Shown here piece after piece: positions 1,373 through 64,000 of a DNA stretch of 64,000 bases; position 1 is the first letter of the stretch, and the number at the start of each line of letters is the position of its first letter. Source of the DNA: Candidatus Caccoplasma sp. Its GTDB lineage: Bacteria > Bacteroidota > Bacteroidia > Bacteroidales > G3-4614. Location of the stretch: the NCBI GenBank assembly GCA_045613905.1, contig JAZLBW010000002.1:68502-132501 (forward strand). The letters are read 5' to 3'. The position numbers and the translations under genes were made by a program. The notes under the pieces are model-generated. The model saw nothing but the letters and a program-made list of their open reading frames with translations, did no database searches and was not told the origin of the DNA.

Positions 1373-3439
1373 ATGACCTCGCTTAAAAGATCTCTTATTT
1401 TAGCATTATCTCTAATGATGTATCTTTCGGTTTTTGCCGATAAAATAAAAGTTGCTTGTATTGGTAATAGTGTTACTTACGGTTATCTCCTACCCGATAG
1501 AGAACAAAATGCCTACCCATTTCAACTACAAAAGATGTTGGGAGAGGATTATGAGGTTGGCAACTTTGGGAAAAGCGGTGCTACACTACTGAATAAAGGA
1601 CACCGCCCATATATGCAACAGCAAGAGTACAAAGATGCGATGGCTTTTGGTGGAGATATTGCCATTATTCATTTAGGGCTGAACGATACCGACCCTCGAA
1701 ATTGGCCAAACTACAGCGAGGATTTTGAGAAAGATTATTATGCTCTAATAGACTCCGTTAAAAAAGCTAACCCCAAATGCAAGGTATGGATTTGCAGGAT
1801 GTCGCCCATTACAGATAAACATTGGCGTTTTAAATCGGGTACTCGTGATTGGTACAGACAAATTCAGACTCACATTGAGGATATTGCAAAGATTAAAGGC
1901 GTGGGACTAATTGATTTACAAGCTCCTTTATATGATTTACCAAATCTTCTTCCCGATGCTCTTCACCCCGACACAACCGGTGCCAAAATTATTGCAAAAA
2001 CAGTTTATTCGGCAATAACAGGTAACTATGGAGGATTGAAGATGTCGCCTGTATATAGCGATAATATGATATTGCAACATGATATGCCTATTGAAATTAA
2101 AGGTATTGCAAATGTTGGAGACGAAGTTACCGTAAAAATTGCAGGCGAGAAGTACAAAACCAAATGTGGAGAAAATGGCAAATGGTGTGTAAAGATTAAA
2201 CCTTTAAAGGCAGGAACAGGATATACCCTATCTGTTAGTACTAAAGATAAGAGTTATACTTATTCAAATGTTGCAGCCGGAGAGGTGTGGCTATGTTCGG
2301 GACAATCGAATATGGCATTTATGATTTGGGAAGGGGCTACAGCTAAAGAGGATGTTGTAAACGCAAACAACAGCAATATAAGACTCTTTAATATGAAACC
2401 TGCTCACGAAACAAACGATGTTGAGTGGGATGTAACATTCCTTGACTCACTAAACAGATTGGATTACTATAAGCCTTCTGAATGGCAAATTTGCGACAAA
2501 GAAACAGTCAACTCATTCTCGGCTGTAGCATATCATTTTGGTAAAGTTCTCGCAGATTCATTGGATATTCCTGTTGGTCTTATATGCAATGCTATTGGCG
2601 GTTCAGCAGCAGAATCGTGGATTTCGAGAGATATTATAGAGGAGAAAATACCCGATATATTGAAAGATTGGACAAAAAATGATATGGTTCAAGATTGGGT
2701 TAGAGGCAGAGCTGAACGAAATTGTAAAAAATCTTCAGTAAGCGGTCAACGCCACCCATATGAACCTACATATTTATATGCAGTTAACCAACCAATCATT
2801 GGTGATTTTAAAGTTAAAGGTATGATTTGGTATCAAGGAGAAAGCAATGCTCACAATATTGAGTTGCACGAACAGCTATTCCCAATGGTTATTGATAGCT
2901 GGAGGGCGCAACAAAACAACCCGGATATGCCTTTCTACTTTGTGCAGTTGTCAAGTATAAACCGTCCGTCGTGGTGTAATTTCCGCAACAGCCAACGCAT
3001 AATGAGCGAAACACTACACAATGTTGGAATGGCTGTTTCATCGGACAAAGGTGATGAGACAAATGTTCACCCTATCCACAAAAAGGAGATTGGAGAGAGA
3101 TTGGCTCGCGTTGCTCTTAACAAGAGTTATGAAATGAGCGACATTACCCCTTCGGGGCCAATGTTTAAAAGCGTTACCTTTGATGGAGGTGCTGCTTACC
3201 CCACCTTTGAATATGGCGAAGGGTTACAAGCGTCAGATGGTGGAGATATTATTGGTTTTGAAGTTGCCGGAGAGGATAAAATTTTCTACCCTGCCAAAGT
3301 TGAAATAAAAAATGACAAAATCAAAGTATGGAGCAAAAAGGTGAAAGCTCCCGTATATATCCGCTACGGTTGGCAACCTTATACTGAGGCAAACCTTGTA
3401 AACAGTGATTTGCTTCCTGCAAGTACTTTTAAGAATTGA
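1373..3439 (+). CDS. sialate O-acetylesterase-like two-domain esterase (SGNH/GDSL + SASA domain)
   Basis: Signal peptide. N-terminal SGNH blocks ACIGNSVTYG, GLNDT and DALHP. C-terminal SASA-type motif CSGQSNM. Confidence 0.8.
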   Translation: MTSLKRSLILALSLMMYLSVFADKIKVACIGNSVTYGYLLPDREQNAYPFQLQKMLGEDYEVGNFGKSGATLLNKGHRPYMQQQEYKDAMAFGGDIAIIHLGLNDTDPRNWPNYSEDFEKDYYALIDSVKKANPKCKVWICRMSPITDKHWRFKSGTRDWYRQIQTHIEDIAKIKGVGLIDLQAPLYDLPNLLPDALHPDTTGAKIIAKTVYSAITGNYGGLKMSPVYSDNMILQHDMPIEIKGIANVGDEVTVKIAGEKYKTKCGENGKWCVKIKPLKAGTGYTLSVSTKDKSYTYSNVAAGEVWLCSGQSNMAFMIWEGATAKEDVVNANNSNIRLFNMKPAHETNDVEWDVTFLDSLNRLDYYKPSEWQICDKETVNSFSAVAYHFGKVLADSLDIPVGLICNAIGGSAAESWISRDIIEEKIPDILKDWTKNDMVQDWVRGRAERNCKKSSVSGQRHPYEPTYLYAVNQPIIGDFKVKGMIWYQGESNAHNIELHEQLFPMVIDSWRAQQNNPDMPFYFVQLSSINRPSWCNFRNSQRIMSETLHNVGMAVSSDKGDETNVHPIHKKEIGERLARVALNKSYEMSDITPSGPMFKSVTFDGGAAYPTFEYGEGLQASDGGDIIGFEVAGEDKIFYPAKVEIKNDKIKVWSKKVKAPVYIRYGWQPYTEANLVNSDLLPASTFKN

Positions 3440-3504
3440 GTTGTTAGTTGTCGGCTATGCCGCCCCTTCGGGGTAGTTGTTAGTTGTTAGTTACTAACAA
3501 CTAC
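3440..3504. repeat. TTAG-heptamer/hairpin intergenic element, copy A (GTTGTTA subtype)
   Basis: GTTGTTA units flank the hairpins CGGCTATGCCG and CCCCTTCGGGG. It ends in the 11-bp-arm palindrome TAGTTGTTAGT-T-ACTAACAACTA (3481-3503) followed by CTTTT. Lies between convergent genes. Confidence 0.7.
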
Positions 3505-3508
3505 TTTT

Positions 3509-4255
3509 CTAAATCTCCTCTAAATCACTTTTGACTTTTGCTGCTTCATTTTGAGAATCGCAATAACGGATAACTACTACTCCTTCTACAACATCATACT
3601 TCTCAATTGATATTTCAATAGTTCCTCCTGCATCTTTCCAACGACTGAACCATGTTACTTTTCCATCATTAAGTTCAAGCATTTTTGCTGAATTTGAATC
3701 GGTAATTGGATTTATTCTCTCTTTTGAGCCAACAGGCGCTCCATACTTACTTGTATATAATTTTTTATAATGATTATAGGTCTCTACCATTGATTTCCAA
3801 TCTCTTGAGGGGGTAAACATTACTATTACCCTATATACATTTTTTCCGTCATTATCTGACTCCACTTTAACGGTTGCTGTTTTCCCTGTGAAATCTCCTC
3901 CAAAAAGTATATCTTTTCCGTCTCTACCTGTTTGCGTAAAGCCTTTTGCTTTCAGCTTTTTACAAAACGATTCCATACTTCCCTTTATGGGTATTCCTTT
4001 AAATTTTAGATGATTAGCGGTATCTTCTCCCTCTTCTTGTACTGCTTTAACTACCTCGTTTATTTCTTTATCCTTTTTTACAACTTTAACGGATTGAGTT
4101 GTTTCCTCTACCTCTTCATCGTCAATAGAGAGATCCTCATCGGTATTCTCTCTGACTACGTTCTCTATACGATTTAATGTTGCATCATCAATATAATATG
4201 ATACCACCATATATATTCCTAACAAAATCAATAGTGTAATTAAAAGCTTTTTCAT
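3509..4255 (-). CDS. hypothetical membrane-anchored protein
   Basis: 248-aa ORF with an N-terminal TM helix, an acidic linker and a globular C-terminal region. No family recognised. Confidence 0.6.
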   Translation of the reverse strand: MKKLLITLLILLGIYMVVSYYIDDATLNRIENVVRENTDEDLSIDDEEVEETTQSVKVVKKDKEINEVVKAVQEEGEDTANHLKFKGIPIKGSMESFCKKLKAKGFTQTGRDGKDILFGGDFTGKTATVKVESDNDGKNVYRVIVMFTPSRDWKSMVETYNHYKKLYTSKYGAPVGSKERINPITDSNSAKMLELNDGKVTWFSRWKDAGGTIEISIEKYDVVEGVVVIRYCDSQNEAAKVKSDLEEI

Positions 4256-7246: not shown

Positions 7247-7270
7247 AATGCTTTGCGAAGTTACAAAAAA

Positions 7271-7304
7271 AGAAGGTGTTTCCCAAATATGAGAAACACC
7301 TTCT
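7271..7304 (-). terminator. rho-independent terminator downstream of the aminotransferase gene (bidirectional shape)
   Basis: 12-bp perfect stem AGAAGGTGTTTC / GAAACACCTTCT with a 10-nt loop. Flanked by an A-run on one side and a T-run on the other. Confidence 0.65.
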
Positions 7305-7308
7305 TTTA

Positions 7309-7362
7309 TTAGTTGTCAACTACGTTGCCCCTTCGGGGTTGTTGTTAGTTTTTAGTTGTTTG
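7309..7362. repeat. TTAG-heptamer/hairpin intergenic element, copy B (TTAGTTG subtype)
   Basis: TTAGTTGTCAACT palindrome, GCCCCTTCGGGG hairpin, then TTGTTAGTTTTTAGTTGTTTG. Lies between the aminotransferase stop and its terminator. Confidence 0.65.
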
Positions 7363-7389: not shown

Positions 7390-8586
7390 TTATTTAAGGC
7401 GAGCAAGTGTCTCCTTAATACGACGCATAGCCTCAACAATATTCTCGTCTGAAGTTGCGTAAGAGAAACGTAGGTATTCAGGAGCGCCAAATGCTTTACC
7501 TCCTACTGTTGCCACGTGTCCTACCTCAAGAAGATACATTGCCAAATCAACAGCATCGTTGATTGTGCGCTCTCCGTCACTCTTACCAAAGAATGAACTT
7601 ACTTTTGGGAATAGATAGAATGCTCCTTGTGGTACGTTAACCTCAAATCCCGGAATTTCTTTAGCCAACTCCACTACCAAATTACGACGACGCTCAAATG
7701 CTTTACGCATCTCCTCTACGCAATCTTGAGGACCTGCAAATGCAGCCACTGATGCTTTTTGAGCTATTGAAGATGGTCCTGAAGTATATTGTCCTTGAAG
7801 TTTGTTACATGCTTTTGCCAACCAAAGGGGAGCTGCTACAAATCCAATACGCCATCCTGTCATTGCGTATGCTTTTGACACTCCGTTGATAACGGCTACG
7901 CGGTCTGCAATTTCAGGGAATTGTGCTATACTTTCGTGTTTGCCAATGTAGTTGATATGTTCATATATCTCATCGGCAATAATTACTATGCGTGGATATT
8001 TCGCCAATACTGCAGCAAGAGACTCCAACTCCTCTTTTGTATATACGCTACCTGTTGGGTTTGAGGGAGAGCAAAGGATTATTGCTTTTGTTTTTGGTGT
8101 GATTGCCTCCTCGAGTTGCGCCGGTGTAATTTTGAAATCTTGCTCAATTCCTGCAGGAACAAGAACACTTTTTCCCTCTGCAAGTTTCACCATTTCAACA
8201 TAACTTACCCAAGCCGGAGTGGGAATGATAACTTCATCATCTTTATCCACTACACACATAACCACGTTGCAAACCGATTGTTTTGCTCCGTTTGATACCA
8301 CTATTTGTTCGGGGGCGTATGTTAGATTGTTTTCGCGTTGCAATTTCTCTGATATTGCTTTACGCAAATCCATGTATCCGGGTACGGGAGAATAGAATGA
8401 GAAGTTATTATCTACTGCATCCTTTGCAGCTTGCTTTATATGTTCGGGTGTAAAGAAATCTGGTTCTCCAACACTTAAATTTATTACATCAACTCCTTGT
8501 GCCTTCAACTCTGCACTTTTTTGAGACATTGCCAATGTTTCTGATGGCGAAAGTGCATTTAAACGAGCGGAAATCATATCTGTCAT
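7390..8586 (-). CDS. pyridoxal phosphate-dependent aminotransferase (aspartate aminotransferase-like, class I)
   Basis: 398 aa with a PLP-lysine region SKAYAMTGWRIG and class I aminotransferase architecture. Confidence 0.85.
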   Translation of the reverse strand: MTDMISARLNALSPSETLAMSQKSAELKAQGVDVINLSVGEPDFFTPEHIKQAAKDAVDNNFSFYSPVPGYMDLRKAISEKLQRENNLTYAPEQIVVSNGAKQSVCNVVMCVVDKDDEVIIPTPAWVSYVEMVKLAEGKSVLVPAGIEQDFKITPAQLEEAITPKTKAIILCSPSNPTGSVYTKEELESLAAVLAKYPRIVIIADEIYEHINYIGKHESIAQFPEIADRVAVINGVSKAYAMTGWRIGFVAAPLWLAKACNKLQGQYTSGPSSIAQKASVAAFAGPQDCVEEMRKAFERRRNLVVELAKEIPGFEVNVPQGAFYLFPKVSSFFGKSDGERTINDAVDLAMYLLEVGHVATVGGKAFGAPEYLRFSYATSDENIVEAMRRIKETLARLK

Positions 8587-10434: not shown

Positions 10435-10486
10435 TTGTTAGTTAACGCGTTTCGCGAGCCTATAGTTTTAAATGAAACATAAAAAC

Positions 10487-10516
10487 GGGATTAGGATTTT
10501 TTCCTACTCCCTTTTT
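10487..10516 (+). terminator. rho-independent terminator after the OmpA-family gene
   Basis: Stem GGGATTAGGA / TCCTACTCCC (10 bp, 1 mismatch) with a T-rich loop, followed by TTTTT. Confidence 0.55.
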
Positions 10517-10734
10517 CCTTATCTGTTAATCTCTAACTTAGCGTATCTACTCCTCATCTCTATCCCCTCTACAGATTATTAGTTAAGAAATTTTACTCCG
10601 TCGCACAGGGTAGTAAAATCATCAGTCGTGCTGTCACATTAAAACTTTTCTCTCCTCACAAAATCAGTTTGTATAAATTTCGCACTTACTGCCTATGTTT
10701 TGGTATTTTCTTTGGCAATAAAATATGTAAAAAT

Positions 10735-11934
10735 ATGGCAAGTGTAAAAGTAAAGTTCCGTGCTTCTAAAATAGAAGGCAAGGAGGGAAAAATCTATTAT
10801 CAAATCATTCAGAATCGTGTAGTTCGTCAGTTAAAAACCAATTATCGACTCTATGCGAATGAGTGGAACGAGAGTAAAAACAGAATAACCATAACCAATA
10901 ACAGTCGCCAAAACTATCTTAAAACCATTGGGGAGAGAATATATTGGGATATTAAACGATTGCAGGCGATAATCAATTTATTGGAGAGTAAAAATATAAA
11001 ATACTCGACAGATGAAATAATCTCAACTTTTCAGAAGCAAGACAATGAGCAATCGCTATTCAACTTTATGCAGAGTGTCATTTTGCAACTACAGCAGATG
11101 GGTAAGCAACGCACATCAGAAACCTATCAAGCAACGCTTCGGAGTTTTATGAGTTTCCGAGAGGACAGGGATATTCTACTGTATGAGATAGATTCAGATA
11201 CAATGTTGATGTATGAAGCGTATTTGCAGAATAGAGGATTGACAAAGAATACAACTTCGTTCTATATGCGAATCTTGCGTGCTGTATATAATCGTTCAGT
11301 TGAAAAGGATTTAATCGTTAATCGAAATCCATTTAAACACGTTTATACAGGCGTTGATAGGACCGTTAAGCGAGCCATTCCGCTAAAAACAATCAAACTA
11401 ATAAAGAACCTTGACCTCTCGTTGCAGTCCTCGCTTGATTTTGCTCGAGATATGTTTATGTTCTCATTTTACACACGTGGAATGTCTTTTATTGATATGG
11501 CATACCTCAAGAAAAAAGACCTCTCTAATGGCATACTATCATACCGCAGACGCAAAACAGGGCAACAATTATTCATTAAATGGGAGAGGTGTATGCAAGA
11601 GATTATTGAAAAATACGATAATCCTCACTCCTCTTACCTATTGCCCATCATAAAGCCAACAAATGGAGACGAACGCACACAATATCAAAATGCAATGTGC
11701 CTTGTTAACCGCAAACTCAAAATTATAGGGCATATGGTGGATATTCAACAACCCTTAACCATGTACTCAGCACGGCACTCATGGGCAAGTGTAGCAAAGA
11801 ATAAAAATATACCAATATCAGTAATAAGTGAGGGAATGGGACACGACTCAGAAATGACGACACAAATCTACCTGGCTTCGTTAGATAATGCAGTAGTTGA
11901 CAAAGCAAATGCTCAGATATTAAAGGATTTGTAG
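10735..11934 (+). CDS. site-specific tyrosine recombinase (Bacteroidales phage-integrase family with N-terminal Arm DNA-binding domain)
   Basis: Start moved to ATG 10735 (MASVKVKFRASK..., the typical Arm-domain N-terminus). The C-terminal catalytic region has ARHSWA, GHDSEMTTQIYL (H..Y). Confidence 0.85.
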   Translation: MASVKVKFRASKIEGKEGKIYYQIIQNRVVRQLKTNYRLYANEWNESKNRITITNNSRQNYLKTIGERIYWDIKRLQAIINLLESKNIKYSTDEIISTFQKQDNEQSLFNFMQSVILQLQQMGKQRTSETYQATLRSFMSFREDRDILLYEIDSDTMLMYEAYLQNRGLTKNTTSFYMRILRAVYNRSVEKDLIVNRNPFKHVYTGVDRTVKRAIPLKTIKLIKNLDLSLQSSLDFARDMFMFSFYTRGMSFIDMAYLKKKDLSNGILSYRRRKTGQQLFIKWERCMQEIIEKYDNPHSSYLLPIIKPTNGDERTQYQNAMCLVNRKLKIIGHMVDIQQPLTMYSARHSWASVAKNKNIPISVISEGMGHDSEMTTQIYLASLDNAVVDKANAQILKDL

Positions 11935-11964
11935 GATATGGGGGTGTTTAGCAAAACGCTACAA

Positions 11965-11982
11965 CTCTTACCAAGAGATGAA
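11965..11982. repeat. left inverted repeat of the candidate invertible segment
   Basis: CTCTTACCAAGAGATGAA is the exact reverse complement of 12134-12151. Confidence 0.9.
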
Positions 11983-12133
11983 TATCTAAACGCAAAGATA
12001 CGTAATTTATATTAGATAAAGGATTTAATAATTCAAGAAAATTAATATTTTACAAATTTTATATACAATAGTTTAGCATATCAAGGATAAATGTATTGTA
12101 TTGTTGTTGATACATAAGATGTTATAAAAACGG

Positions 12134-12151
12134 TTCATCTCTTGGTAAGAG
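12134..12151. repeat. right inverted repeat of the candidate invertible segment
   Basis: TTCATCTCTTGGTAAGAG is the exact reverse complement of 11965-11982. Confidence 0.9.
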
Positions 12152-12248
12152 ATGTGCATAAATTAAGAATGTAATGTGAAGGATTTTGCCTGCCTCATAA
12201 AACATTAAAGAATTTAGATGATAATATAAAAACAAATCAAATACAATT

Positions 12249-14219
12249 ATGAAAAAATTAAATTTATTGCTTTTATTGATATTCAGTGTCATTTCGCTGA
12301 ATATTTATGCTCACGATTTTGAAATGGTTAATAGCGATGGAAAAACTATTTATTACGATATTATTTCGTCTGCGGACTTAACAGTCTCTGTTAGTTACAG
12401 AGGAAGTAGTTATAGTAGTTATACTAATGAGTATGAAGGAGATATTTCCATTCCATCATCAGTTTCATATAATGGAAAAACATATAGTGTCACTTCAATT
12501 GAAAATAATGCATTCAGGAATTGTGATGGTTTGACTTCTGTAACAATCGGTAACGGTGTCACTTCAATTGGAGATGAAGCATTCTATCATTGTGATGGTT
12601 TGACTTCAATAATCATCCCTAACAGTGTCACTTCAATTGGAGATGATGCATTCTATTATTGTTATGGTTTGACTTCAATAACCATCCCTAATAGTGTCAC
12701 TTCAATTGGAAATTATGCATTCCGTTCGTGTGATGGTTTGACTTCAGTAACAATCCCTAACAGTGTCACTTCAATTGGAAATTATGCATTCGGGGATTGT
12801 GATGGTTTGACAACTATTATAGTAGATGAAGGTAATAGTAAATATGATTCACGCGAAGATTGCAATGCAATAATAGAGAGTGAAACTAATACTCTAATTT
12901 CAGGCTGTAAATCTACTATTATCCCTAACAGTGTCACATCAATAGGCTCTTCTGCATTCTACGGTTGTAGTGGTTTGACTTCAATAACTATCCCTAACAG
13001 TGTCACTTCTATTGGAGATTATGCATTCTTTTCTTGTGATGGTTTGACTTCTGTAACCATCCCCAATAGTGTCACTTCAATTGAAAATAATGCATTCTCT
13101 TGGTGTGATGCTTTGACTTCAGTAACAATCGGTAACGGTGTCACCTCAATTGGAGATGATGCATTCTACGGTTGTAGTGGTTTGACTTCCGCAACAATAG
13201 GCGACAGTGTCACTTCAATTGGAAATTGGGCATTCTCACGTTGTAGTGGATTGACTTCTGTAACAATCGGTAACAGTGTCTCCTCAATTGGAGATTATGC
13301 ATTCTCTTATTGTGATGCTTTGACTTCAATAAATGTAGATTCCGACAATCCATCTTATACATCATTAAATGGAGTGTTATTCAATAAAGGGAAAACACAG
13401 TTGATAATATATCCTAAAGGGAAAGAAGGGTCATACAACATCCCTAACAGTGTCTCTTCAATTGAAAATAATGCATTCTCTTATTGTGATGCTTTGACTT
13501 CAATAACCATCCCAAACAGTGTCACTTCAATTGGAGATAGGGTATTCGATAATTGTAAAGGTTTGACTTCAATAACCATCCCAAACAGTGTCACTTCAAT
13601 TGGAAATTATGCATTCAGGAATTGTGATGGTTTGACTTCAGCAACCATCCCTAATAGTGTCACTTCAATTGGAAATTATGCATTCTCTTCTTGTGATGCT
13701 TTGACTTCAATAACTATTCCTAATAGTGTCACTTCAATAGGAGAAGATGCTTTCTGGGGTTGTAGTGGTTTGACTTCCGCAACAATAGGCGACAGTGTTA
13801 TTTCAATAGGAGATGAGGCATTCAGTAAATGCACCGGCTTAACAGAGATTTACTCGTTAAATCCCGAACCTGCAATATGTAATGGAAATTCTTTCTCACA
13901 AGTTGATAAAACTATTCCTGTATATATTCCATATGGATCAAAAAGTGCTTACAAATCGGCAGCTGAGTGGAAAGATTTTACAAACTTTATTGAGAGCGAG
14001 TTCACAGGAGTTGATGAGGAAGTAATCTCAACTTCAGATATTAAGGTTATATCGGGTAATGGTATTGAGGTTAACGATTACTACGGCCGCATTCGCATTG
14101 TAAACCTTGCAGGGCAAGTTATAAAAGATGCTTATGTAAATGGTTATGTTCAATTATCTTTACCTAAAGGTGTTTATATTGTAGTTACAGAAAACTATTC
14201 TCAAAAAGTAATTTTATAA
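12249..14219 (+). CDS. BspA-type leucine-rich repeat surface protein with T9SS C-terminal sorting domain
   Basis: Signal peptide and about 20 copies of the 23-aa unit IPNSVTSIGxxAFxxCxGLTSVT. The C-terminal ~70 aa (…RIRIVNLAGQVIKD…GVYIVVTENYSQKVIL) are typical of Por/T9SS CTDs. Confidence 0.85.
   Translation: MKKLNLLLLLIFSVISLNIYAHDFEMVNSDGKTIYYDIISSADLTVSVSYRGSSYSSYTNEYEGDISIPSSVSYNGKTYSVTSIENNAFRNCDGLTSVTIGNGVTSIGDEAFYHCDGLTSIIIPNSVTSIGDDAFYYCYGLTSITIPNSVTSIGNYAFRSCDGLTSVTIPNSVTSIGNYAFGDCDGLTTIIVDEGNSKYDSREDCNAIIESETNTLISGCKSTIIPNSVTSIGSSAFYGCSGLTSITIPNSVTSIGDYAFFSCDGLTSVTIPNSVTSIENNAFSWCDALTSVTIGNGVTSIGDDAFYGCSGLTSATIGDSVTSIGNWAFSRCSGLTSVTIGNSVSSIGDYAFSYCDALTSINVDSDNPSYTSLNGVLFNKGKTQLIIYPKGKEGSYNIPNSVSSIENNAFSYCDALTSITIPNSVTSIGDRVFDNCKGLTSITIPNSVTSIGNYAFRNCDGLTSATIPNSVTSIGNYAFSSCDALTSITIPNSVTSIGEDAFWGCSGLTSATIGDSVISIGDEAFSKCTGLTEIYSLNPEPAICNGNSFSQVDKTIPVYIPYGSKSAYKSAAEWKDFTNFIESEFTGVDEEVISTSDIKVISGNGIEVNDYYGRIRIVNLAGQVIKDAYVNGYVQLSLPKGVYIVVTENYSQKVIL
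12444..13845 (+). repeat. tandem 69-bp (23-codon) LRR coding repeats, many near-identical at the DNA level
   Basis: Strings such as CAGTGTCACTTCAATTGGAAATTATGCATTC recur throughout. Three repeat blocks are separated by short non-repeat linkers. Confidence 0.85.
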
Positions 14220-18384: not shown

Positions 18385-18417
18385 AATTAGGAATTAGAAT
18401 TTCTAATTTAAATTAAG
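18385..18417. repeat. TTAG-heptamer element, copy D (AATTAGG/AATTAGA subtype)
   Basis: AATTAGG AATTAGA followed by the palindrome AATTAGAA-T-TTCTAATT, then AATTAAG. Fills the pyrI to flavin reductase intercistronic gap. Confidence 0.55.
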
Positions 18418-22713: not shown

Positions 22714-22791
22714 TAATTAGGAATTAGTACGGCACTTCGTGCCAATTAGAAATTAGAAATTAGAAATTAGAAATTAATTAATTCCTAATTA
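22714..22791. repeat. TTAG-heptamer/hairpin element, copy E (MITE-like, with terminal inverted repeats)
   Basis: 13-bp TIR TAATTAGGAATTA (22714-22726) / TAATTCCTAATTA (22779-22791). Internal hairpin GGCACTTCGTGCC. Four tandem AATTAGA units. Confidence 0.7.
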
Positions 22792-22804: not shown

Positions 22805-23110
22805 TTGCGAACCCTGAAAGTATCAAACTTTCGGGGTTCGTTTTTTATATGTATTTTAAGCGGCCACACTATTGCTTATAAGGAAGAACGATATTGCCAG
22901 TCATATACATACCTTGGAAAAACGGAATACGAATATGACAAAAACAATAATCTAACAGAGGAAACTAAATATTATTTTTATGGTCCTATAGAATCTAAGG
23001 TAATTTACGAATACGACTCCGTAGGTAATACTATAAAAAAATTTTATTGTCTTAACAATGACGACAAACTAGTGATTAGCGAGATTGACACACTAAAACT
23101 ATCTTTTTAA
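22805..23110 (+). pseudogene. possible orphan YD/RHS-repeat-like fragment
   Basis: The ORF has no ATG (TTG start) and its first codons overlap the terminator hairpin. Contains YD-like strings YEYDKNNNLTEE and YEYDSVGNTIKK. Confidence 0.2.
22808..22846 (+). terminator. rho-independent terminator of the DASS transporter gene
   Basis: 14-bp stem CGAACCCTGAAAGT / ACTTTCGGGGTTCG (one G-U pair), 5-nt loop, then TTTTTT. Confidence 0.75.
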
Positions 23111-23316: not shown

Positions 23317-23378
23317 CACGAGATTTCTAAACTCAATTTATTTTCATCATGAAAGAGCAAATAAGGCTGCCCAACGCG

Positions 23379-23747
23379 ATGAAAAAGATTTTATTTATGA
23401 TGGCTATAGCTCTTGGGCTATTAGTAAGTTCTTGTGGTATTACACAACAAGCTACTCAAAACGTAAACGAGTTGCAAACTCAAGTTGTTTTAACAGAGGC
23501 TAACTACCAAGTTGTTGGTACTGCAACCGCAGAATTAACTCAAAAGTATGTATTTGGCTTTGGTGGTATCTCTAAAAAAACTCTTGGACAATCAGCTATG
23601 AGCGCTATGATGAAAAATGCAGATCTTCAAGGTGGAGCTCGTGCTATCATCAACGCTAACGTTGAGTACGATGTTGTTTCTTACTTAGGAATCTACACTA
23701 AAGTTACTGCTACTGCAACAGGAACTATCATCGAATTTACAAAGTAA
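23379..23747 (+). CDS. hypothetical small lipoprotein
   Basis: Start moved to MKKILFMMAIALGLLVSSCG (lipobox). 122 aa. A strong terminator follows. Confidence 0.6.
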   Translation: MKKILFMMAIALGLLVSSCGITQQATQNVNELQTQVVLTEANYQVVGTATAELTQKYVFGFGGISKKTLGQSAMSAMMKNADLQGGARAIINANVEYDVVSYLGIYTKVTATATGTIIEFTK

Positions 23748-37785: not shown

Positions 37786-37820
37786 AATTAATAATTTGTT
37801 AGTTAATAAAATTTGCGGTG

Positions 37821-37828
37821 CAAAAGTA
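37821..37828 (-). promoter_or_regulatory. -7 promoter box TACTTTTG of the rpsF operon
   Basis: Exact TAnnTTTG match 36 bp upstream of the rpsF ATG. Shares the module ATTTGCGGTGCAAARGTAGTAA with the tRNA-Arg promoter. Confidence 0.5.
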
Positions 37829-37863
37829 GTAAATATTTTTGAATTATGCAACATTTGCAGTTA

Positions 37864-37888
37864 TTAGTTTTTAGTTGTTAGTTGTTAG
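37864..37888. repeat. TTAG-heptamer element, copy F
   Basis: TTAGTTT TTAGTTG TTAGTTG TTAG in the divergent rpsF/hydrolase promoter region. Confidence 0.55.
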
Positions 37889-38006: not shown

Positions 38007-39005
38007 ATGAGAATATATTATACGCTGATTTTAGTTTTTAGTCTTTTATGCTTTAGTTCGTTTGCACAATACAGGGAGGATGAGTTAGGAGAAGGGTTGA
38101 TATGCAGAATCATTGATATGGAAGATGACTATGAGGGTAAGGTTATTTGTACTCTTATTAAAAGAGAGGCTACGGAAAAGAGCGACAAAGCTCTGCTTTA
38201 TGTTCATGGTTTTAACGACTACTTTTTCCAAACCGAAATGGCAGACCGATTTAATGCCGAAGGATACAACTTTTATGCTATCGACTTGCGTAAATACGGG
38301 CGTTCTATCCTACCCAACCAAACGCGTTGCAATGCAAGGAGTATAGATGAATATTTTGCCGATTTGGATAGTGCTGTTAATATTATAAAAAGCGAAGGGA
38401 ATAGCTCTATTGTCCTTATGGGTCACTCAACAGGAGGGCTTACAACTTCGCTGTATTGCCACTCTAAAGGCGACAACTGCCCCGTTGATGCTCTGATTTT
38501 GAACAGTCCGTTCTTTAAATTCAATATGGGAGAGTTGCTCAACGACTACGTTATTCCTGTTGTTGCAACCATAGCTCCCATGATTCCAACAATTAATATT
38601 CCGCAAGGAGCTTCAACTGCATATGCAGAGAGTCTTTTAAAGGATTATCATGGAGAGTGGAAATTTGACACAGACAAAAAACTTATGCTCTCACCCGATG
38701 TTACCACCGATTGGATTTCGGCTATATACAATGCTCAAAAAGTTGTGTGGAGTGGATTGGATATTAAAGTTCCAGTTCTTGCAATGTACTCCGACAATAG
38801 TGTTGACGGCAACGAATGGAGCGAAGATTTTATGCATGGTGATGCAGTTTTAAATGTAAGAGATATTGCAAAATACTCTCAAACTTTAGGCAATAATGTT
38901 CAACGTGCAAAAATTGTTGGTGGCATACACGACCTACTATGCTCTCGCCCCGAAGTCAGAGAGAGAGCATATAGGTACATATTTTACTTTTTAATGAGGA
39001 ATTAG
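38007..39005 (+). CDS. alpha/beta hydrolase (lysophospholipase/monoacylglycerol lipase-like)
   Basis: Signal peptide, HGFND oxyanion region, nucleophile elbow GHSTGG and a C-terminal GGIHD. The last codons (ATG AGG AAT TAG) lie in an element-like AATGAGGAATTAG string. Confidence 0.8.
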   Translation: MRIYYTLILVFSLLCFSSFAQYREDELGEGLICRIIDMEDDYEGKVICTLIKREATEKSDKALLYVHGFNDYFFQTEMADRFNAEGYNFYAIDLRKYGRSILPNQTRCNARSIDEYFADLDSAVNIIKSEGNSSIVLMGHSTGGLTTSLYCHSKGDNCPVDALILNSPFFKFNMGELLNDYVIPVVATIAPMIPTINIPQGASTAYAESLLKDYHGEWKFDTDKKLMLSPDVTTDWISAIYNAQKVVWSGLDIKVPVLAMYSDNSVDGNEWSEDFMHGDAVLNVRDIAKYSQTLGNNVQRAKIVGGIHDLLCSRPEVRERAYRYIFYFLMRN

Positions 39006-39022
39006 CTCGTGGCTAAAGCAAC

Positions 39023-39058
39023 AATTAGAAATTATTTCTAATTTCTAATTTCTAATTT
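39023..39058. repeat. TTAG-heptamer element, copy G
   Basis: Hairpin AATTAGAAA-TTA-TTTCTAATT followed by two further TCTAATT units. Lies between convergent stop codons. Confidence 0.65.
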
Positions 39059-39926
39059 AGTAAGAGACACTCATATCGGTTGGTACAGCTATGTAGTAGT
39101 CGGCTCTACCTCTGTTTTCTTCATCGAGTGACGATATATCATCCTGACGTACGTTGCATATTGTTACCACGCTTAATTGTGGGGCATACTCTGCAAGATA
39201 GGGTACTATACCTTGTTTGAAATCGGAATGGTAATTTCCTTGTATATGCAAAAAGTGTTTTGCATTACTCTTTGCTATATTCCAAGCCATTGTAGCATCT
39301 TTTATGGCTTGTGCTTGTGCCATATACTCAGCATTTGATTCACTCTTTGAGAAAAGTTGCATCATTGCAAACATTGAGTTCTCCTCATCTGCCTTAAAAG
39401 TTATAGGCAACGAAGGGAGATACGTTTTTGCCTCTACCGAGAGCGAATCTAAATATTGCAATCCCTTATTCTTAACCACATTTGCATATCGACGCGGAAC
39501 ATTTGTTGCCACAAAAGGGATAGAATTCTCTTTTGCAAAGTATAGGAATGGATAGTAATCGGTTGAGTAGTTAGGCCATAGACGTGCTTCGTCTTCAAAG
39601 CGATCGTATGTGATTACGCTTTGCATATATTCATCTAAAATCAATTGGTTATCCGACTCAAACATTTCGGCTCCCATAGCAAAGTTTTTGCCATGCTCTG
39701 CATATAGCGAACGTGCTATTTCAAACTCCAACCAATGGACTATTGCACAGTTGTGTATTTCGCCCAACAAAACCACGTTGTACGACGATAACTCTCTGAC
39801 CAGGGTTTCATATCCTATCTCCTTGCCTTGGGTATCGAATATGGTGTAAGCCTTTTTGTATCCTTTTTGCGAAAACACAGATATGGATATGAGCATCACA
39901 AAAAGCAATATGGTGTATTTTTTCAT
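39057..39926 (-). CDS. ChaN/Tiki superfamily lipoprotein (haem-binding uptake-like, Cofac_haem_bdg)
   Basis: Signal peptide. Motifs VVLLGEIHNCAIVH, GAEMFESDNQ and ATNVPRR match the ChaN family pattern. Confidence 0.7.
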   Translation of the reverse strand: MKKYTILLFVMLISISVFSQKGYKKAYTIFDTQGKEIGYETLVRELSSYNVVLLGEIHNCAIVHWLEFEIARSLYAEHGKNFAMGAEMFESDNQLILDEYMQSVITYDRFEDEARLWPNYSTDYYPFLYFAKENSIPFVATNVPRRYANVVKNKGLQYLDSLSVEAKTYLPSLPITFKADEENSMFAMMQLFSKSESNAEYMAQAQAIKDATMAWNIAKSNAKHFLHIQGNYHSDFKQGIVPYLAEYAPQLSVVTICNVRQDDISSLDEENRGRADYYIAVPTDMSVSY

Positions 39927-49012: not shown

Positions 49013-49031
49013 AGCTTTTTTTTGAATGAGA

Positions 49032-49097
49032 AATTAGAAATTAATTTCTAATTGCGACAAAGTCGCGTACTAATTGTGACGAAGTCACGAACTAATT
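49032..49097. repeat. TTAG-heptamer/hairpin element, copy H
   Basis: Perfect 22-bp palindrome AATTAGAAATT|AATTTCTAATT, then two 22-bp tandem units GCGACAAAGTCGC-GTACTAATT and GTGACGAAGTCAC-GAACTAATT. The mntP stop codon lies inside the last unit. Confidence 0.7.
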
Positions 49098-49664
49098 TGC
49101 CAAAACAGTGTGTTCCAACAATATTTTCAAACCTATAGATATAAGTATTACTCCTCCTATGAATGTTGCAACTCGGCTGTAACGTGTTCCAAAAAGTTTT
49201 CCGATATAACAACCTGCGACAGAAGCGATGAAGGTTATCGAGAATATTATTATGGTTGCCTCAATGAGTGCTATCTCAAGAAATGCAAACGACACTCCTA
49301 CCGCCAAAGCATCAATGCTTGTTGCTATTCCCATTTGAACAAGGGTTGAAAACTTTGTAGGATTAAAACAACACTCTTTCTCCTCTTGTTTTTCTGTAAC
49401 TGCATCAAAAATCATTTTTCCACCCAAAAAGAGGAGTAGTGCAAAGGCAATCCAGTGATCGACGGTTTGAATGATATTTACAAAGCCCACACCTAACAAC
49501 CAACCTAAAATTGGCATTACGGCTTGAAAGAACGATAGATAGAGTGCTATCTTGGCAACATGTGCAAACTTAAATGGTTTTAGTGCCACGCCCGACGATA
49601 GGGATACGGCAAACGAATCCATAGAGAGACCAAGTGCCAATACAAATAGTGCTAATATAGTCAT
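49092..49664 (-). CDS. mntP: manganese efflux pump MntP
   Basis: 190 aa with six TM segments and duplicated DSFAVS / DALAVG motifs (DUF204/MntP). Confidence 0.85.
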   Translation of the reverse strand: MTILALFVLALGLSMDSFAVSLSSGVALKPFKFAHVAKIALYLSFFQAVMPILGWLLGVGFVNIIQTVDHWIAFALLLFLGGKMIFDAVTEKQEEKECCFNPTKFSTLVQMGIATSIDALAVGVSFAFLEIALIEATIIIFSITFIASVAGCYIGKLFGTRYSRVATFIGGVILISIGLKILLEHTVLAN

Positions 49665-49674
49665 AGTTTTATTA

Positions 49675-49730
49675 AATTAGGAATTAGAAATTAGGAATTA
49701 GAAATTAGGAATTAGAAATTAGGAATTAGA
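49675..49730. repeat. tandem array (AATTAGG AATTAGA) x4, copy I
   Basis: Eight perfect heptamers (14-bp period x4) ending 10 bp upstream of the mntP start codon. Confidence 0.9.
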
Positions 49731-49747
49731 AATTTTGCGAATAAGTG

Positions 49748-49808
49748 CATTTTAAGGTAATTACAGAGTAATTAAAATTGACTAAATGTCAATTTGTGCC
49801 TTAAAATG
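49748..49808 (-). promoter_or_regulatory. candidate structured leader/operator of mntP (perfect three-way junction)
   Basis: P1 CATTTTAAGG/CCTTAAAATG (10 bp) encloses the hairpins AAATTGAC-5nt-GTCAATTT (8 bp) and TAATTAC-3nt-GTAATTA (7 bp). All 25 pairs are Watson-Crick. Lies between a -7 box and the mntP ATG. Confidence 0.45.
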
Positions 49809-49846
49809 GGGAGCACTGTGCTCTGTGCGACGGGGTCGAGCAGAGT

Positions 49847-49854
49847 CAAATTTA
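49847..49854 (-). promoter_or_regulatory. -7 promoter box TAAATTTG upstream of the mntP leader
   Basis: Exact TAnnTTTG match on the minus strand, about 185 nt upstream of the mntP ATG. Confidence 0.4.
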
Positions 49855-49910
49855 TTTGGACTATGCCGAGCGTGAGCAAAATCAACTAACGAATGTTTGT
49901 TAATTAAAAA

Positions 49911-51149
49911 TTATTTACTATTTAAAATTTTCATTATATCTGCAGGTGGTAACCCTTTCTTTAACTGTTCTGCCATGTAGAGCATATATGGTTTTGAATG
50001 ATTGAAAAATTTATGCAATCCTTTGCAAAGATAGTTTAATCCATCCTCTCCGTCAAAGGTTTTTGAAATTCTGTTCTTGGGACACTCTCCGTTACATAGG
50101 TGAAGAAACTCACACTCTCTGCATTGACGTGGCAAGGTATTGAATTTATCTGCTCCGAATTTCATCTGTTCACGAGACAACATCATTTCGGTTAATGTTT
50201 TGGTACGGATGTTACCCAATTTATATTCGGGAAAGACAAAGTGGTCGCAACTGAACAAATCTCCGTTATGCTCCATCACTGCCGCATGTCCGCACATCTT
50301 TGCATACACGCACACTCCCGGTTGCTCGCCTACCCACCCTGCAAGAGTTGAGTCAAAGAGTTGGACGAAATAGCAACCCACATCTTTTCGCACCCACTCA
50401 TCAAAGATGCTGCAGTAGAAGTTTCCGTAATCTTCGGGCGATACACACCATGGAGGCATCTCAACATTCCCGAACCTCTCCCCCGGGGGTAATAGTTCCA
50501 ATCCATCGGGACGGTCTCCCCATCGTTCAACTATGGGCGAAAACTGCATATATCTACTACCTATGCTTTTGAAAAAGTTGTAAACCTCAAGAGGGTATTT
50601 TGCGCTATAATCGTTTATAACCGAAAGGGTGTTGAACTCCACACCATGTTTTTGCAACAGCTCCACCCCTTTCATCACTCGCGAGAATGTTCCTCGTCCG
50701 CTCTTGTCTCGACGATAACGGTCGTGAACATGTTCGGGACCGTCTAACGATATGCCTGTAAGAAAGTTATTCTCTTTTAAAAAGCGACACCATTCATCGT
50801 TTAACAACACTCCGTTTGTCTGTATTGAGTTTGTTATTGTTCGTCCTCCCGCATACTGCTGTTGCAAACGCACCGCTTTACGAAAAAAGTCAAGACCACG
50901 CAAAAGAGTCTCACCTCCGTGCCATGTAAACAACACATATGGCGTTGGCTGACACTCAATATACTCCTTTATGTAACGCTCCAATATATCGTCACTCATC
51001 TTTGGCGATGCCCCTCGGTATAGCTCTCCCTTTTCGAGATAGTAACAGTAGTGGCAATCCAAATTGCACAACGCGCCTATTGGTTTTGCCATTACATATA
51101 TGGGATATGTCAGGGGATTGAATATTGCGGTAGCCTTTTTTTCGCTCAT
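49911..51149 (-). CDS. anaerobic sulfatase-maturating enzyme (radical SAM/SPASM)
   Basis: Radical-SAM cluster CNLDCHYCYY and a C-terminal Cys-rich SPASM region (CRECEFLHLCNGECPKNR). 412 aa. Confidence 0.85.
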   Translation of the reverse strand: MSEKKATAIFNPLTYPIYVMAKPIGALCNLDCHYCYYLEKGELYRGASPKMSDDILERYIKEYIECQPTPYVLFTWHGGETLLRGLDFFRKAVRLQQQYAGGRTITNSIQTNGVLLNDEWCRFLKENNFLTGISLDGPEHVHDRYRRDKSGRGTFSRVMKGVELLQKHGVEFNTLSVINDYSAKYPLEVYNFFKSIGSRYMQFSPIVERWGDRPDGLELLPPGERFGNVEMPPWCVSPEDYGNFYCSIFDEWVRKDVGCYFVQLFDSTLAGWVGEQPGVCVYAKMCGHAAVMEHNGDLFSCDHFVFPEYKLGNIRTKTLTEMMLSREQMKFGADKFNTLPRQCRECEFLHLCNGECPKNRISKTFDGEDGLNYLCKGLHKFFNHSKPYMLYMAEQLKKGLPPADIMKILNSK

Positions 51150-52200: not shown

Positions 52201-52232
52201 GTTGTTAGTTGTTAGTTTTTTGTTGTTAGTTG
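52201..52232. repeat. TTAG-heptamer element, copy J (GTTGTTA subtype)
   Basis: GTTGTTA GTTGTTA GTTTTTT GTTGTTA GTTG starts at the base after the dehydrogenase stop and runs into the TTG start of the next ORF. Confidence 0.6.
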
Positions 52233-63118: not shown

Positions 63119-63200
63119 AAATTAGGAATGAGGAATTAGGAATTAGAAATGATTAATTCCTAATTTCTAATTGGCTCGAAGTGCCGAACTAATTCCTAAT
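63119..63200. repeat. TTAG-heptamer/hairpin element, copy K (MITE-like, opposite orientation to copy E)
   Basis: 10-bp TIR AATTAGGAAT (63119-63128) / ATTCCTAATT (63191-63200). Internal TCTAATT-GGCTCGAAGTGCC-GAACTAATTCCTAATT nearly matches the reverse complement of copy E. Confidence 0.7.
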
Positions 63201-63208
63201 TAAAAAAA

Positions 63209-64000
63209 CTATTTCACTTCGCTTCCCGGAGCCACCTCTTTTTGTGTTGTTGTAACAACCAATTTGCCATCGAAGTCTTCGGCAGAAAGAATCATACCTT
63301 GCGACTCGATTCCTTTGATTTTACGAGGTGCCAAGTTTGCGATAAAGCATACTTGTTTTCCTACCAACTCCTCGGGAGCATAATGTTTTGCAATACCCGA
63401 TACAATTGTTCTTCCACCCAAACCGTCATCTATTTTGAACATCAAAAGTTTGTCGGCTTTGGGAACTTTTGTACACTCCAAAACTGTTCCAACGCGGATA
63501 TCCAATTTCAAGAAGTCCTCAAAATCGATGTTTTCTGCTATTGGGTTTGCCTTTTTGTTTTTCAACTCATTAGCAACTTTTGTATCTTGAAGGCGTTGAA
63601 TTTGCGCCTCAATTTCTGCATCTTCAATCTTCTCGAACAATAGTTCGGGAGCATTAATTTCTGCACCTGTGGCAAGGATATTCATCTCGCCCAAACTGTT
63701 CCAATCGCACTCTGTCATATTCAACATACCACGCAATTTAGCTGCTGAGAATGGCAAGAATGGTTCAAATGCAATTGCAAGGTTTGCAGATATTTGCAAT
63801 GCCACATTCATAATTGTGGCTACGCGCTCCATATCGGTTTTAGCAAGTTTCCAAGGCTCAGTATCTGCAAGATATTTGTTACCGATACGAGCCAAGTTCA
63901 TAGCCTCTTTCAAAGCATCGCGGAAGCGGTAGTTTTGAAGCAATTTCTCTATCTCGTCTTTAACCGATGCAAACTCTGCTATTGTTGCGTTATCGTATTC
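63209..64000 (-). CDS. metG: methionine--tRNA ligase, C-terminal part (5' end outside window)
   Basis: Frame open to the window edge. Anticodon-binding region, then the C-terminal tRNA-binding (Trbp111/EMAP-like) domain [28 protein letters not shown]. Confidence 0.9.

Follow-up and report, generated by a model that had tools for sequence, protein, structure and literature searches.

The 64 kb stretch of contig JAZLBW010000002.1 (Candidatus Caccoplasma sp., Bacteroidales, uncultured and of gut type) analyzed here, called the window in the following, carries 11 copies of a family of intergenic repeats composed of tandem heptamers with a TTAG core and of small GC-rich triloop hairpins. The repeat family is genuine, and on balance we think it probable that the non-coding intergenic repeats, which form hairpins, make up a mosaic family specific to its lineage, an uncultured Bacteroidales clade, and that this family behaves like repetitive extragenic palindromes (REP) and bacterial interspersed mosaic elements (BIME) or like REP doublets forming hairpins (REPIN). 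Its best reading is that of a parallel to the heptamer repeats of cyanobacteria which would be driven at the DNA level by slippage and by copying between sites. The kind of repeat is known, but the present family and its grammar appear to be undescribed. Two points are most worth pursuing, namely the conservation paradox of copies that are dispensable and replaceable but nearly unchanged where they are retained, and the anchoring of TTAG-core arrays at stop codons across phyla.

Composition and architecture of the repeat family

The window has a GC content of about 39% and comprises 54 genes and, counting those of 15 nt or more, 35 spacers that total 5147 nt. Using dinucleotide-preserving shuffles as null model we found TTAGNNNTTAG 24 times against 2.8 expected (a count reached in none of 100 shuffles), AATTAGRAATTAG with at most one mismatch 27 times against 0.47 and GTTGTTAGTTGTTAG with at most two mismatches 11 times against 0.24, the latter in all 11 cases on the + strand. 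A periodicity scan over periods of 4–15 nt resulted in eight arrays for period 7 against 0.03 in the shuffles and in 0–2 arrays for all other periods, so that 7 is the sole over-represented tandem period in the window, and period-7 arrays are also reported by Tandem Repeats Finder. These counts confirm the two-flavor family of heptamers and GC triloop hairpins that had been proposed in a preliminary description of this DNA, including the excess over shuffled DNA by which it was to be checked. All 11 copies listed there are present, at or a few bases from the positions given, with three of them (37859–37888, 38993–39058 and 49025–49097) being slightly longer than described. The copy at 10435–10458 is present but weak, as it consists of 1.5 units and a 4-bp hairpin and is missing in the relative L131. 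Altogether the elements amount to 594 nt or 11.5% of the spacer DNA and occupy 11 of the 35 spacers:

3440–3504: flavor-2 composite, filling the entire 69-nt gap between the convergent stop codons 3437–3439 and 3509–3511
7309–7362: flavor-2 composite in the 3' untranslated region (UTR) of a − strand aminotransferase gene with its stop codon at 7390–7392
10435–10458, + strand: degenerate copy and weakest member, right after the stop codon of an OmpA-family gene
18385–18417: flavor-1 palindrome without hairpin module in the pyrI/flavin reductase spacer, from 2 nt past the stop codon up to the ATG
22714–22791, + strand: flavor-1 element, beginning 3 nt past the stop codon of an SLC13/DASS-type transporter gene
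37859–37888: flavor-2 array, CTAACAA on the rpsF sense strand, directly upstream of the putative rpsF promoter
38993–39058: flavor-1 palindrome between convergent genes (hydrolase, ChaN)
49025–49097, − strand: flavor-1 element with two tandem 22-nt modules (49048–49097), the TAG of its first unit being the MntP stop codon (49092–49094)
49675–49730, + strand: longest array, with eight units alternating between AATTAGG and AATTAGA, 10 nt upstream from the start codon of MntP (− strand)
52201–52232, + strand: flavor-2 array, starting from the stop codon of a 2-hydroxyacid dehydrogenase gene and filling the spacer to a DNA-alkylation-repair gene
63119–63201, − strand: flavor-1 element, in the 3' UTR that follows the metG C-terminal open reading frame (ORF) on the − strand with its stop codon at 63209–63211

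The elements are modular palindromes whose arms are inverted heptamer arrays, with AATTAGR as arm unit in flavor 1 and GTTGTTA in flavor 2. The layout of flavor 1 is constant and polar across independent loci: about two AATTAGG/AATTAG units are followed by one or two 22-nt modules, more AATTAGR units, a short turn and a (YCTAATT)n arm. Each 22-nt module is made of AATTAG and a 16-nt part, the latter consisting of T(A/T/G)C and a 5-bp G...C stem whose two strands enclose a TTC loop and occurring in zero to three copies between units. The element at 22714–22791 reads TAATTAGGAATTAG-TAC-GGCACTTCGTGCC-(AATTAGA)x4.7-AATTAATTAATTCCTAATTA, which corresponds to two units, TAC, the hairpin GGCAC-TTC-GTGCC (22731–22743), 4.7 AATTAGA units (22744–22776) and the inverted arm AATTCCTAATTA. 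Its termini are the inverted heptamer arrays TAATTAGGAATTA ... TAATTCCTAATTA, and it therefore has the terminal inverted repeats that are expected of transposable elements of the miniature inverted-repeat type (MITEs). At 63119–63201 the − strand shows two units, TTC, GGCAC-TTC-GAGCC (63173–63185, one mismatch), further units and an inverted arm, and at 49025–49097 the hairpins are GCGAC-AAA-GTCGC (49054–49066) and GTGAC-GAA-GTCAC (49076–49088). In the palindrome at 38993–39058 the hydrolase stop codon TAG (39003–39005) lies inside AATGAGGAATTAG and the ChaN stop codon (39057–39059) overlaps the last unit; the number of units at this site differs in L142 and further relatives show other forms.

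Flavor 2 has GTTGTTA arms and an inverted CTAACAA arm with CCCCGAAGGGG embedded, and a second mini-hairpin which is CGGC-ATA-GCCG or CAAC-GTA-GTTG (CGGCA...TGCCG in relatives). The composite at 3440–3504 is assembled from GTTGTTA units, CGGC-TAT-GCCG (3452–3462), CCCC-TTC-GGGG (3463–3473), an array (3474–3492) and an AT-rich palindrome (3481–3503), the one at 7309–7362 from CAAC-TAC-GTTG (7317–7327), CCCC-TTC-GGGG (7328–7338) and an array (7341–7360), and the degenerate copy from TTGTTAGTTAA and the hairpin CGCG-TTT-CGCG (10446–10456). Flavor-2 arrays in L135 and L137 hold the module TAC-GGTAC-TTC-GTACC, which is the grammar of flavor 1. From the hairpins listed in the preliminary description GGCACTTCGTGCC (22731–22743), GCGACAAAGTCGC (49054–49066), GTGACGAAGTCAC (49076–49088) and CCCCTTCGGGG, the last one at two places (3463–3473 and 7328–7338), are exact, and GGCTCGAAGTGCC (63173–63185) contains one mismatch.

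The stems among the aligned modules include GGCAC/GTGCC, GCGAC/GTCGC, GTGAC/GTCAC, GTGGC/GCCAC and GGTAC/GTACC, and in all ten of them TTAG and then TAC, TTC or TGC form the flank. Read from the opposite strand, the loops are C-GAA-G or C-GTA-G, which we take to be the very stable GNA mini-hairpin of single-stranded DNA, a lead only. The orientation of the heptamer runs does flip, as had been described, and the inverted arms make whole elements fold into long imperfect hairpins on both strands, with predicted z scores of −3 to −7 compared to shuffles (−4.3 on the + and −6.5 on the − strand for 3440–3504; −6 and −7.4 for 63119–63201). Moreover, identical 35-nt stretches (AATTAGGAATTAGTACGGCACTTCGTGCCAATTAG) are found at non-orthologous sites.

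Orthologous sites in relatives

According to its gene content (SusC/SusD, DUF5715, DUF6383, BspA-type leucine-rich repeats) the window belongs to the Bacteroidales. Its nearest proteins come from metagenomic Bacteroidales with 92–99% identity, those of Bacteroides, Phocaeicola, Tannerella, Coprobacter and Parabacteroides show just 70–80% identity, and the source lineage is scarce in the sequence collections searched, where the transporter protein has no exact match and the exact PyrI protein is present on a single 603-bp contig only. From syntenic loci of relatives (such as L122, L131 and L152) we could build allelic series for several sites, in which the polymorphism that the preliminary description had suggested to look for was found, empty sites included. 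At site A, following the transporter stop codon, the window and L131/L132 share the element but differ by exactly two AATTAGA units (14 nt), L144 and L145, with a transporter of 95–96% identity, carry a flavor-2 array instead, and the L122 lineage has no element. At site B, the pyrI/flavin reductase spacer, the window shows 33 nt without a module, one module is present in L131 and in L144 and two in L143, L145 combines flavor 2 with element X (a third dispersed module, see below) and L125 has other heptamers. Relatives show zero, two or three modules with differing stems at site C, the MntP stop codon. At site D, the MntP start, the window carries the eight-unit array and element X, L146 and L147 carry three units and one antisense module, and in L148, a relative with 98% identity, there is no spacer and the two genes overlap by 4 nt. 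The element is therefore dispensable at one site at least.

At the Por_Secre_tail junction L133 and L140 are separated by a precise module-bearing indel of ~37 nt in an identical context, and L135 and L140 have different flavors despite being 96.4% identical overall. The 7309 site is empty in L152, where a plain terminator is found, and whole-unit differences also separate the window from L142 and from L148. Several stems are shared by non-orthologous loci, with GGCAC/GTGCC being present at four, GCGAC-TTT-GTCGC at two and GTGGC-TTC-GCCAC at two (L140 and L146/L147). As these variants recur at unrelated loci, modules have been copied between loci.

Retained elements are conserved better than any other non-coding DNA that was compared. 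At site A the window and L131 are identical in 81 of 82 positions from the stop codon to the foot of the terminator, the two-unit indel aside, whereas identity at fourfold-degenerate sites is 60% for the transporter gene and 63% for SHMT and pyrI; the final 100 nt of the transporter gene show ~85% identity by our own count on the alignment. At site B the spacers of L144 and L131 share 102 of 107 positions, including the first unit AATCAGG, the spacer TGC and the particular central turn, compared to 45–49% identity at fourfold sites of the pyrI and flavin reductase genes. Retained elements are thus 95–99% identical against 45–63% at fourfold-degenerate sites of the neighboring genes, and other spacers of the same genome pairs are 80–87% identical or unalignable. 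Neutral microsatellites do not behave like this. Judged from these alignments, the primary sequence would be under some constraint or some homogenizing process, despite the dispensability and the wholesale replacement of the elements.

Element X was found in the window as follows:

49731–49912, + strand: element X, third dispersed module, joined to the longest array through AATTAGAAATTTTG

It is structured, ranges in size from ~85 to 290 nt, occurs in both orientations and within arrays of either flavor and is always joined to heptamers (AATTAGGAATTTTG...). Copies at non-orthologous sites lie in L141 (8159–8440), L138 (8277–8343), L134 (4028–4096 and 6390–6487), the pyrI-flr spacer of L145 (~3137–3290), L146 (10966–11047) and L149 (8203–8300). 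In L146/L147 it is inverted inside a flavor-2 array, and in L149 it is flanked by AATTAGGAATT direct repeats, which may be array units. Element X has no match in Rfam, as a permissive scan of 49600–49960 (E up to 1) gave chance-level hits only, and collections of phages and plasmids gave no match either. A MITE is one possibility for it and a multicopy small RNA gene another; the Bacteroidaceae possess a multicopy small RNA family, FopS.

Some further observations concern the neighborhood of the elements. Past the transporter terminator follow a 101-aa ORF with a weak RHS-repeat match (22805–23110) and a DUF6567 gene (23349–23747), and as this segment is shared with none of L131, L122 and L145 the region downstream of site A has been rearranged between lineages. 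The transporter terminators of L122 (4497–4610) and L125 (6482–6600) have the same stem and an inverted loop, GGCAATGCTTGAGGGCATTGCC versus GGCAATGCCCTCAAGCATTGCC, which looks like a hairpin-loop inversion between near-identical contigs, as far as can be read from the two sequences. The array at 37859–37888 is partly conserved in L133, L137–L139 and L141. The region upstream of rpsF (TTGCA...TActTTTGCACCGCAAATTTTATTAACTAA; window 37786–37860, L133–L142 9540–9650) is near-invariant in all ten relatives. By reading, the putative rpsF promoter consists of TTG followed by TActTTTG, and the region presumably fits the −33/−7 promoter consensus of Bacteroidetes. The 139-aa S6 ORF probably starts at an internal ATG near 37785, giving the 116-aa product called in relatives. 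At 10669–14219 the window contains a gene for a tyrosine integrase (Phage_int_SAM_5, Phage_integrase, Arm-DNA-bind_5) and, after it, a BspA-type leucine-rich-repeat gene that holds 69-bp tandem repeats; the two are missing at the syntenic position of L131 and are therefore probably an inserted or invertible cassette. Finally, L150 (8566–10275) and L151 (4145–5854), from a different Bacteroidales organism, encode aminotransferase homologues of 569–574 aa (P0241, P0242) with two Aminotran_1_2 matches each, which is a fused or duplicated gene unrelated to the repeats.

Position at gene ends and possible explanations

Eight of the 11 copies overlap a stop codon or are at most 8 nt away from one, so that the placement near stop codons claimed in the preliminary description holds for most copies, but for eight by our recount and not for nine. 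At 39003–39005, 39057–39059 and 49092–49094 the stop codon itself is part of a heptamer. As TTAG includes TAG and its complement includes TAA, and as 7 cannot be divided by 3, three or more units contain stop codons in every frame of both strands, just as had been pointed out. All copies are indeed intergenic, but since three units close all six frames this placement is partly automatic. Gene calling is affected, as the repeat supplies several stop codons, and with about a tenth of the intergenic DNA of the window lying in such elements at gene boundaries the family also bears on the annotation of 3' UTRs.

Elements had also been placed upstream of the real terminators. This holds for 22714–22791, which is followed after 16 nt by a canonical terminator (22807–22841), and by reading only for two more terminator hairpins, at ~7250–7300 on the − strand and at ~10490–10530, neither of which is listed by the terminator scan. 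The elements as terminators themselves were considered and rejected, as the number of terminator-like sites in an intrinsic terminator test is not above that of shuffles and separate terminators come after the elements. A simple terminator scan passes just the flavor-2 hairpins 3462–3474 and 7327–7339, through their T-rich heptamers; the hairpin at 7327 is antisense to both adjoining genes and flavor-1 hairpins have no T tract.

In order to look beyond the source lineage, one genome per species was scanned for four TTAGDWD units, giving at least 120 loci. Among the matches listed, TTAG-core arrays occur in the cyanobacteria Nostoc, Microcoleus and Calothrix (units TTAGGAG, TTAGATT and TTAGTTG) as well as in many Bacteroidota, Patescibacteria, Planctomycetota, Clostridia and others. 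Again among the matches listed, 43 of the 115 flanks with a stop codon, taken for ORFs of 150 codons or more, have the array at most 5 nt from the stop codon or overlapping it, compared to 13.9 expected from uniform placement or 17.4 when a 10-nt overlap is allowed, and this result is robust to ORF length and GC filters. Starting at a stop codon is thus general for TTAG-core arrays. The association of hairpin and heptamers is not: across phyla 11 of 483 array flanks have a GC triloop hairpin against 6.6 expected, which is not significant, and such a general association was dropped. The module pattern TTAGTACGNNNCTTCGNNNCAATTAG has one match in Joint Genome Institute (JGI) metagenomes (L143) and none in viral contigs, and the exact module is therefore almost confined to the source lineage. 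Three AATTAGR units were found in 112 viral contigs (L153–L264, IMG/VR) including giant-virus bins, with a chance expectation that we roughly estimate to be well under one.

Several of these arrays have features of their own. The viral AATTAGR arrays are in many cases found immediately upstream of a start codon, with their last unit passing over into AGGAG or GGAG (L169 at 1093 and 6294, L164 at 1895, L172, L178, L180, L198, L199, L201, L206); in hosts using Shine-Dalgarno sequences such a unit would read as a stop codon joined to a Shine-Dalgarno-like core. The TTAGATT arrays of Microcoleus (L010, L016, L030, L031, L052, L054, L059, L098, L109, L118) have conserved flanks, (G)TCARTCGATT at one end and ...CCACAGATRAATCTGGGRGCTTG at the opposite end, and there the heptamers belong to a defined dispersed element. 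A degenerate heptamer block, (R)ATTTGTTTAGGATTTAGATATTAGRATTTAGGATTT, is near-identical in L003, L018, L024, L032, L062, L063, L066, L091 and L120, which are metagenome-assembled genomes from groups unrelated to each other (Planctomycetota, Patescibacteria, Gammaproteobacteria, Aminicenantia and Nitrospirae). Many contigs start or end inside a heptamer array (L005, L011, L032, L068, L079, L102, L117, L185, L200, L225), suggesting that the arrays break short-read assemblies and hence affect metagenome assembly.

For the mosaic family that we favor, the heptamer arms would expand and contract by replication slippage, and modules and element X would be shuffled between loci by recombination or template switching across homologous arms; alternatively one might imagine a hairpin-recognizing HUH/Y1 single-strand DNA enzyme encoded elsewhere in the genome as the mover. 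Lying between a stop codon and a terminator (22807–22841) or the next start codon, the elements would be co-transcribed, and their RNA would fold as a long hairpin with stop codons in every frame. Any effect on the cell might then be a punctuation of gene ends, e.g. a block to 3'-end decay or to read-through, and by analogy a REP-like effect on mRNA 3' ends is plausible. The strong conservation of the primary sequence suggests that a trans-acting factor recognizes the units.

Several points weigh against this mosaic family. A cognate transposase or RAYT (REP-associated tyrosine transposase), for which the preliminary description had proposed a search, was not found: Pfam scans of 30 window ORFs gave none and no Y1_Tnp domain, the precomputed Pfam labels of the relatives' locus genes include no transposase, and a screen for the HUH-Y1 motif in 2582 six-frame ORFs from the window and 145 loci (~1.3 Mb) gave nothing in the window or the relatives. 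The sole match came from the unrelated gammaproteobacterial L024, a RAYT-like ORF (3094–3900, NHYH...YIHLNP) ~2 kb from its array. An insertion sequence was likewise not seen in the window or in the relatives' loci. No consistent target-site duplication was seen at the element ends, and empty sites also differ in their flanks. The stems covary, which speaks for the family, as 96% of the cells in ten aligned modules are paired, both sides have changed in three of five pairs and the score was reached in none of 500 shuffles, but these modules had been chosen for at most one mismatch, which inflates the percentage paired, and decayed modules occur in L134, L136 and L149. Module polarity relative to transcription is not strict, being sense at six loci and antisense at two. 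The first unit AATCAGG and the spacer TGC at site B are locus-specific quirks shared by different species, which points to vertical inheritance under constraint rather than to frequent re-copying, and a selected function is compatible with them. Finally, the analysis covers just 64 kb of the source genome.

Such a function might reside in the RNA. The elements could be selected cis-acting RNA elements of 3' UTRs or intercistronic spacers that protect against 3'-to-5' decay, stop ribosomes in all frames or bind a protein, with the RRM-type Rbp proteins of Bacteroidetes as candidates and with turnover being a replacement by equivalent cassettes. We regard this as possible though unlikely. The position after a stop codon and ahead of a terminator or the following start, the strong predicted structure with compensatory stem changes, the conservation far above neutral that includes locus-specific details, the sense orientation of the module in six of eight independent loci and the finding that RbpB of B. 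thetaiotaomicron binds AU-rich single-stranded RNA all argue for it. However, both orientations occur (L140, L146/L147), which ruled out strict transcriptional polarity of the hairpin modules, and a replication-strand rule for flavor 2 was rejected too, as all four window copies are on the + strand but relatives show both orientations. Furthermore, the array 37859–37888 lies upstream of a promoter, the spacer of site D is absent in L148 and the sites in L122 and L152 are empty, and a structural RNA would tolerate compensatory changes in its AT-rich arms, yet the primary sequence is kept. Polarity, the copy upstream of the promoter and dispensability thus argue against a single strict RNA function. 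As palindromic DNA folds alike on both strands, the folds are also no proof that RNA is the relevant molecule. The primary sequence being kept on both strands with an apparently orientation-independent function would fit DNA-level protein-binding arrays similar to BIMEs, which bind IHF and gyrase: phased AT-rich heptamers, of which three units span two helical turns, and extrudable hairpins might act as topological or nucleoid-organizing sites at gene ends. Gene 3' ends and the space between convergent genes are indeed sites where supercoils accumulate, and REP/BIME biology offers the analogy, but the number of units varies freely and the elements are dispensable at some sites, and we consider this the least probable of the explanations discussed here.

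It appears very improbable to us that the elements are just neutral heptanucleotide microsatellites, in which polymerase slippage favors 7-nt units that originate independently in AT-rich spacers, with the hairpins and the likeness between loci being incidental. A heptamer excess has been explained by slippage in many bacteria (Mrazek 2007, as referred to in PMC4692102), relatives are separated by whole-unit indels, TTAG-core arrays occur in many unrelated phyla and in the viral contigs, and the hairpins are not generally associated with arrays. Neutral slippage does not, however, account for the same two unit families in the same ordered architecture at 11 loci, for the identical AATTAGGAATTAGTACGGCACTTCGTGCCAATTAG stretches at non-orthologous sites, for the conservation above fourfold-degenerate sites or for arrays beginning at stop codons in large excess over uniform placement, and modules common to different loci are hard to reconcile with it. 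It could also be, even if we find it quite unlikely, that TTAG-core arrays represent a cosmopolitan and so far uncharacterized class of gene-end elements in bacteria and phages, stop-anchored and often stop-supplying, with a unit sequence under sequence-specific constraint beyond slippage. The point of ribosome release may expose the non-template strand or the nascent RNA and so become a preferred site for single-strand-specific copying or insertion or for binding of a conserved factor. If true, such a process would explain the start at the stop codon, the sense tendency, the GNA/TTC mini-hairpins and the above-neutral conservation despite dispensability. The usual slippage account explains neither 95–99% conservation next to near-saturated synonymous sites nor the abutment to stop codons across phyla. 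The preliminary description had missed the cosmopolitan TTAG-core class, the literature on cyanobacteria and Xanthomonas, element X and the above-neutral conservation.

Relation to known repeat systems

The mosaic family has no name so far. At gathering score Rfam finds a tRNA-Arg only in the window and nothing in L138 and L141, so that the elements match no Rfam family, and we found no published description: literature searches by sequence string gave unrelated primer-type matches and those for heptamer repeats in Bacteroides nothing relevant. This agrees with the preliminary description, which did not recognize a named family. Its comparison with REP/BIME or MITEs fits the behavior, but no RAYT or transposase was found in the window and the relatives' loci, no target-site duplication is evident and the GTAG/CGTC tag is missing. 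Like REP/BIME and REPIN, the elements are short extragenic palindromes in many copies (here in 11 of 35 spacers) that form mosaics with other motifs (here arms, modules and element X), often at gene 3' ends; their inverted arrangements fold as long hairpins, copy number varies by strain and the family sequence is kept across related species. In contrast to the REP palindrome of ~20–40 bp they have a 13-nt core with a 5-bp stem and a triloop, their arms are heptanucleotide microsatellites, and modules are arranged in tandem and not as inverted doublets. The unpaired GTAG/CGTC tag that defines REPs is absent from the ten aligned modules, where the flank is TTAG-TAC, TTAG-TTC or TTAG-TGC. A small hairpin alone does not exclude REP membership, as a GTAG family with a 5-bp stem is known from Thauera (Di Nocera 2013). 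REP/RAYT-associated repeats are best known in Enterobacteria and Pseudomonas, and the Bacteroidetes are known to have RAYT subclasses with 'atypical secondary structures'.

Within the same order the BrickBuilt MITE of Porphyromonas gingivalis (Klein et al. 2015, PMC4596501) is also an intergenic multi-copy composite, and its ~22–23 nt tandem repeat in variable number with flanking segments resembles the 22-nt modules at 49048–49097 and element X. BrickBuilt elements are 84–991 nt long, have a leader and a tail with terminal inverted repeats and lie 49–591 nt from coding sequences (PMC4596501), whereas the elements described here have heptamer arms and at most three 22-nt modules and abut stop codons, and no sequence resemblance was seen. 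With no GTAG/CGTC tag, no demonstrated RAYT, an architecture different from BrickBuilt and no Rfam match, we file the family as a kind of mosaic intergenic repeat outside the named families.

The nearest literature deals with the heptamer repeats of cyanobacteria and Xanthomonas. Heptanucleotide simple sequence repeats are over-represented in many prokaryotes with slippage as explanation (Mrazek et al. 2007, as far as it is cited in PMC4692102), and in the window, too, period 7 alone is enriched and whole units change; this account leaves the shared architecture, the hairpin modules, the stop-codon anchoring and the strong conservation unexplained. The GGGAATC and GGGGA(T/C)T repeats of Xanthomonas and Nostoc (Rehm et al. 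2015, PMC4692102) are likewise intergenic, found at the same genes in relatives, variable in length and in some cases arranged as inverted stem-loop pairs. They are, however, G-rich and form quadruplexes, while the elements of the window are AT-rich, saturated with stop codons, contain GC triloop hairpins and start at stop codons. Three heptanucleotide repeats are known from Calothrix (PMC4692102). As in these short tandemly repeated repetitive (STRR) sequences of Calothrix and Nostoc, a few types of 7-nt unit are found in tandem at many intergenic sites with numbers varying between relatives, although phylum and unit sequences (here AATTAGR and GTTGTTA) differ. The modules recall the small dispersed repeats (SDRs) of cyanobacteria, which at ~20–27 nt are very small, possibly mobile and associated with heptamers. 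Such SDRs (~20 bp) are reportedly found inside heptamer arrays, as is said of work by Elhai et al. from 2008. With the present family the Bacteroidales would gain a REP/BIME-like system with a clear allelic series, which would lend itself to strain typing and to work on the movement of tiny repeats.

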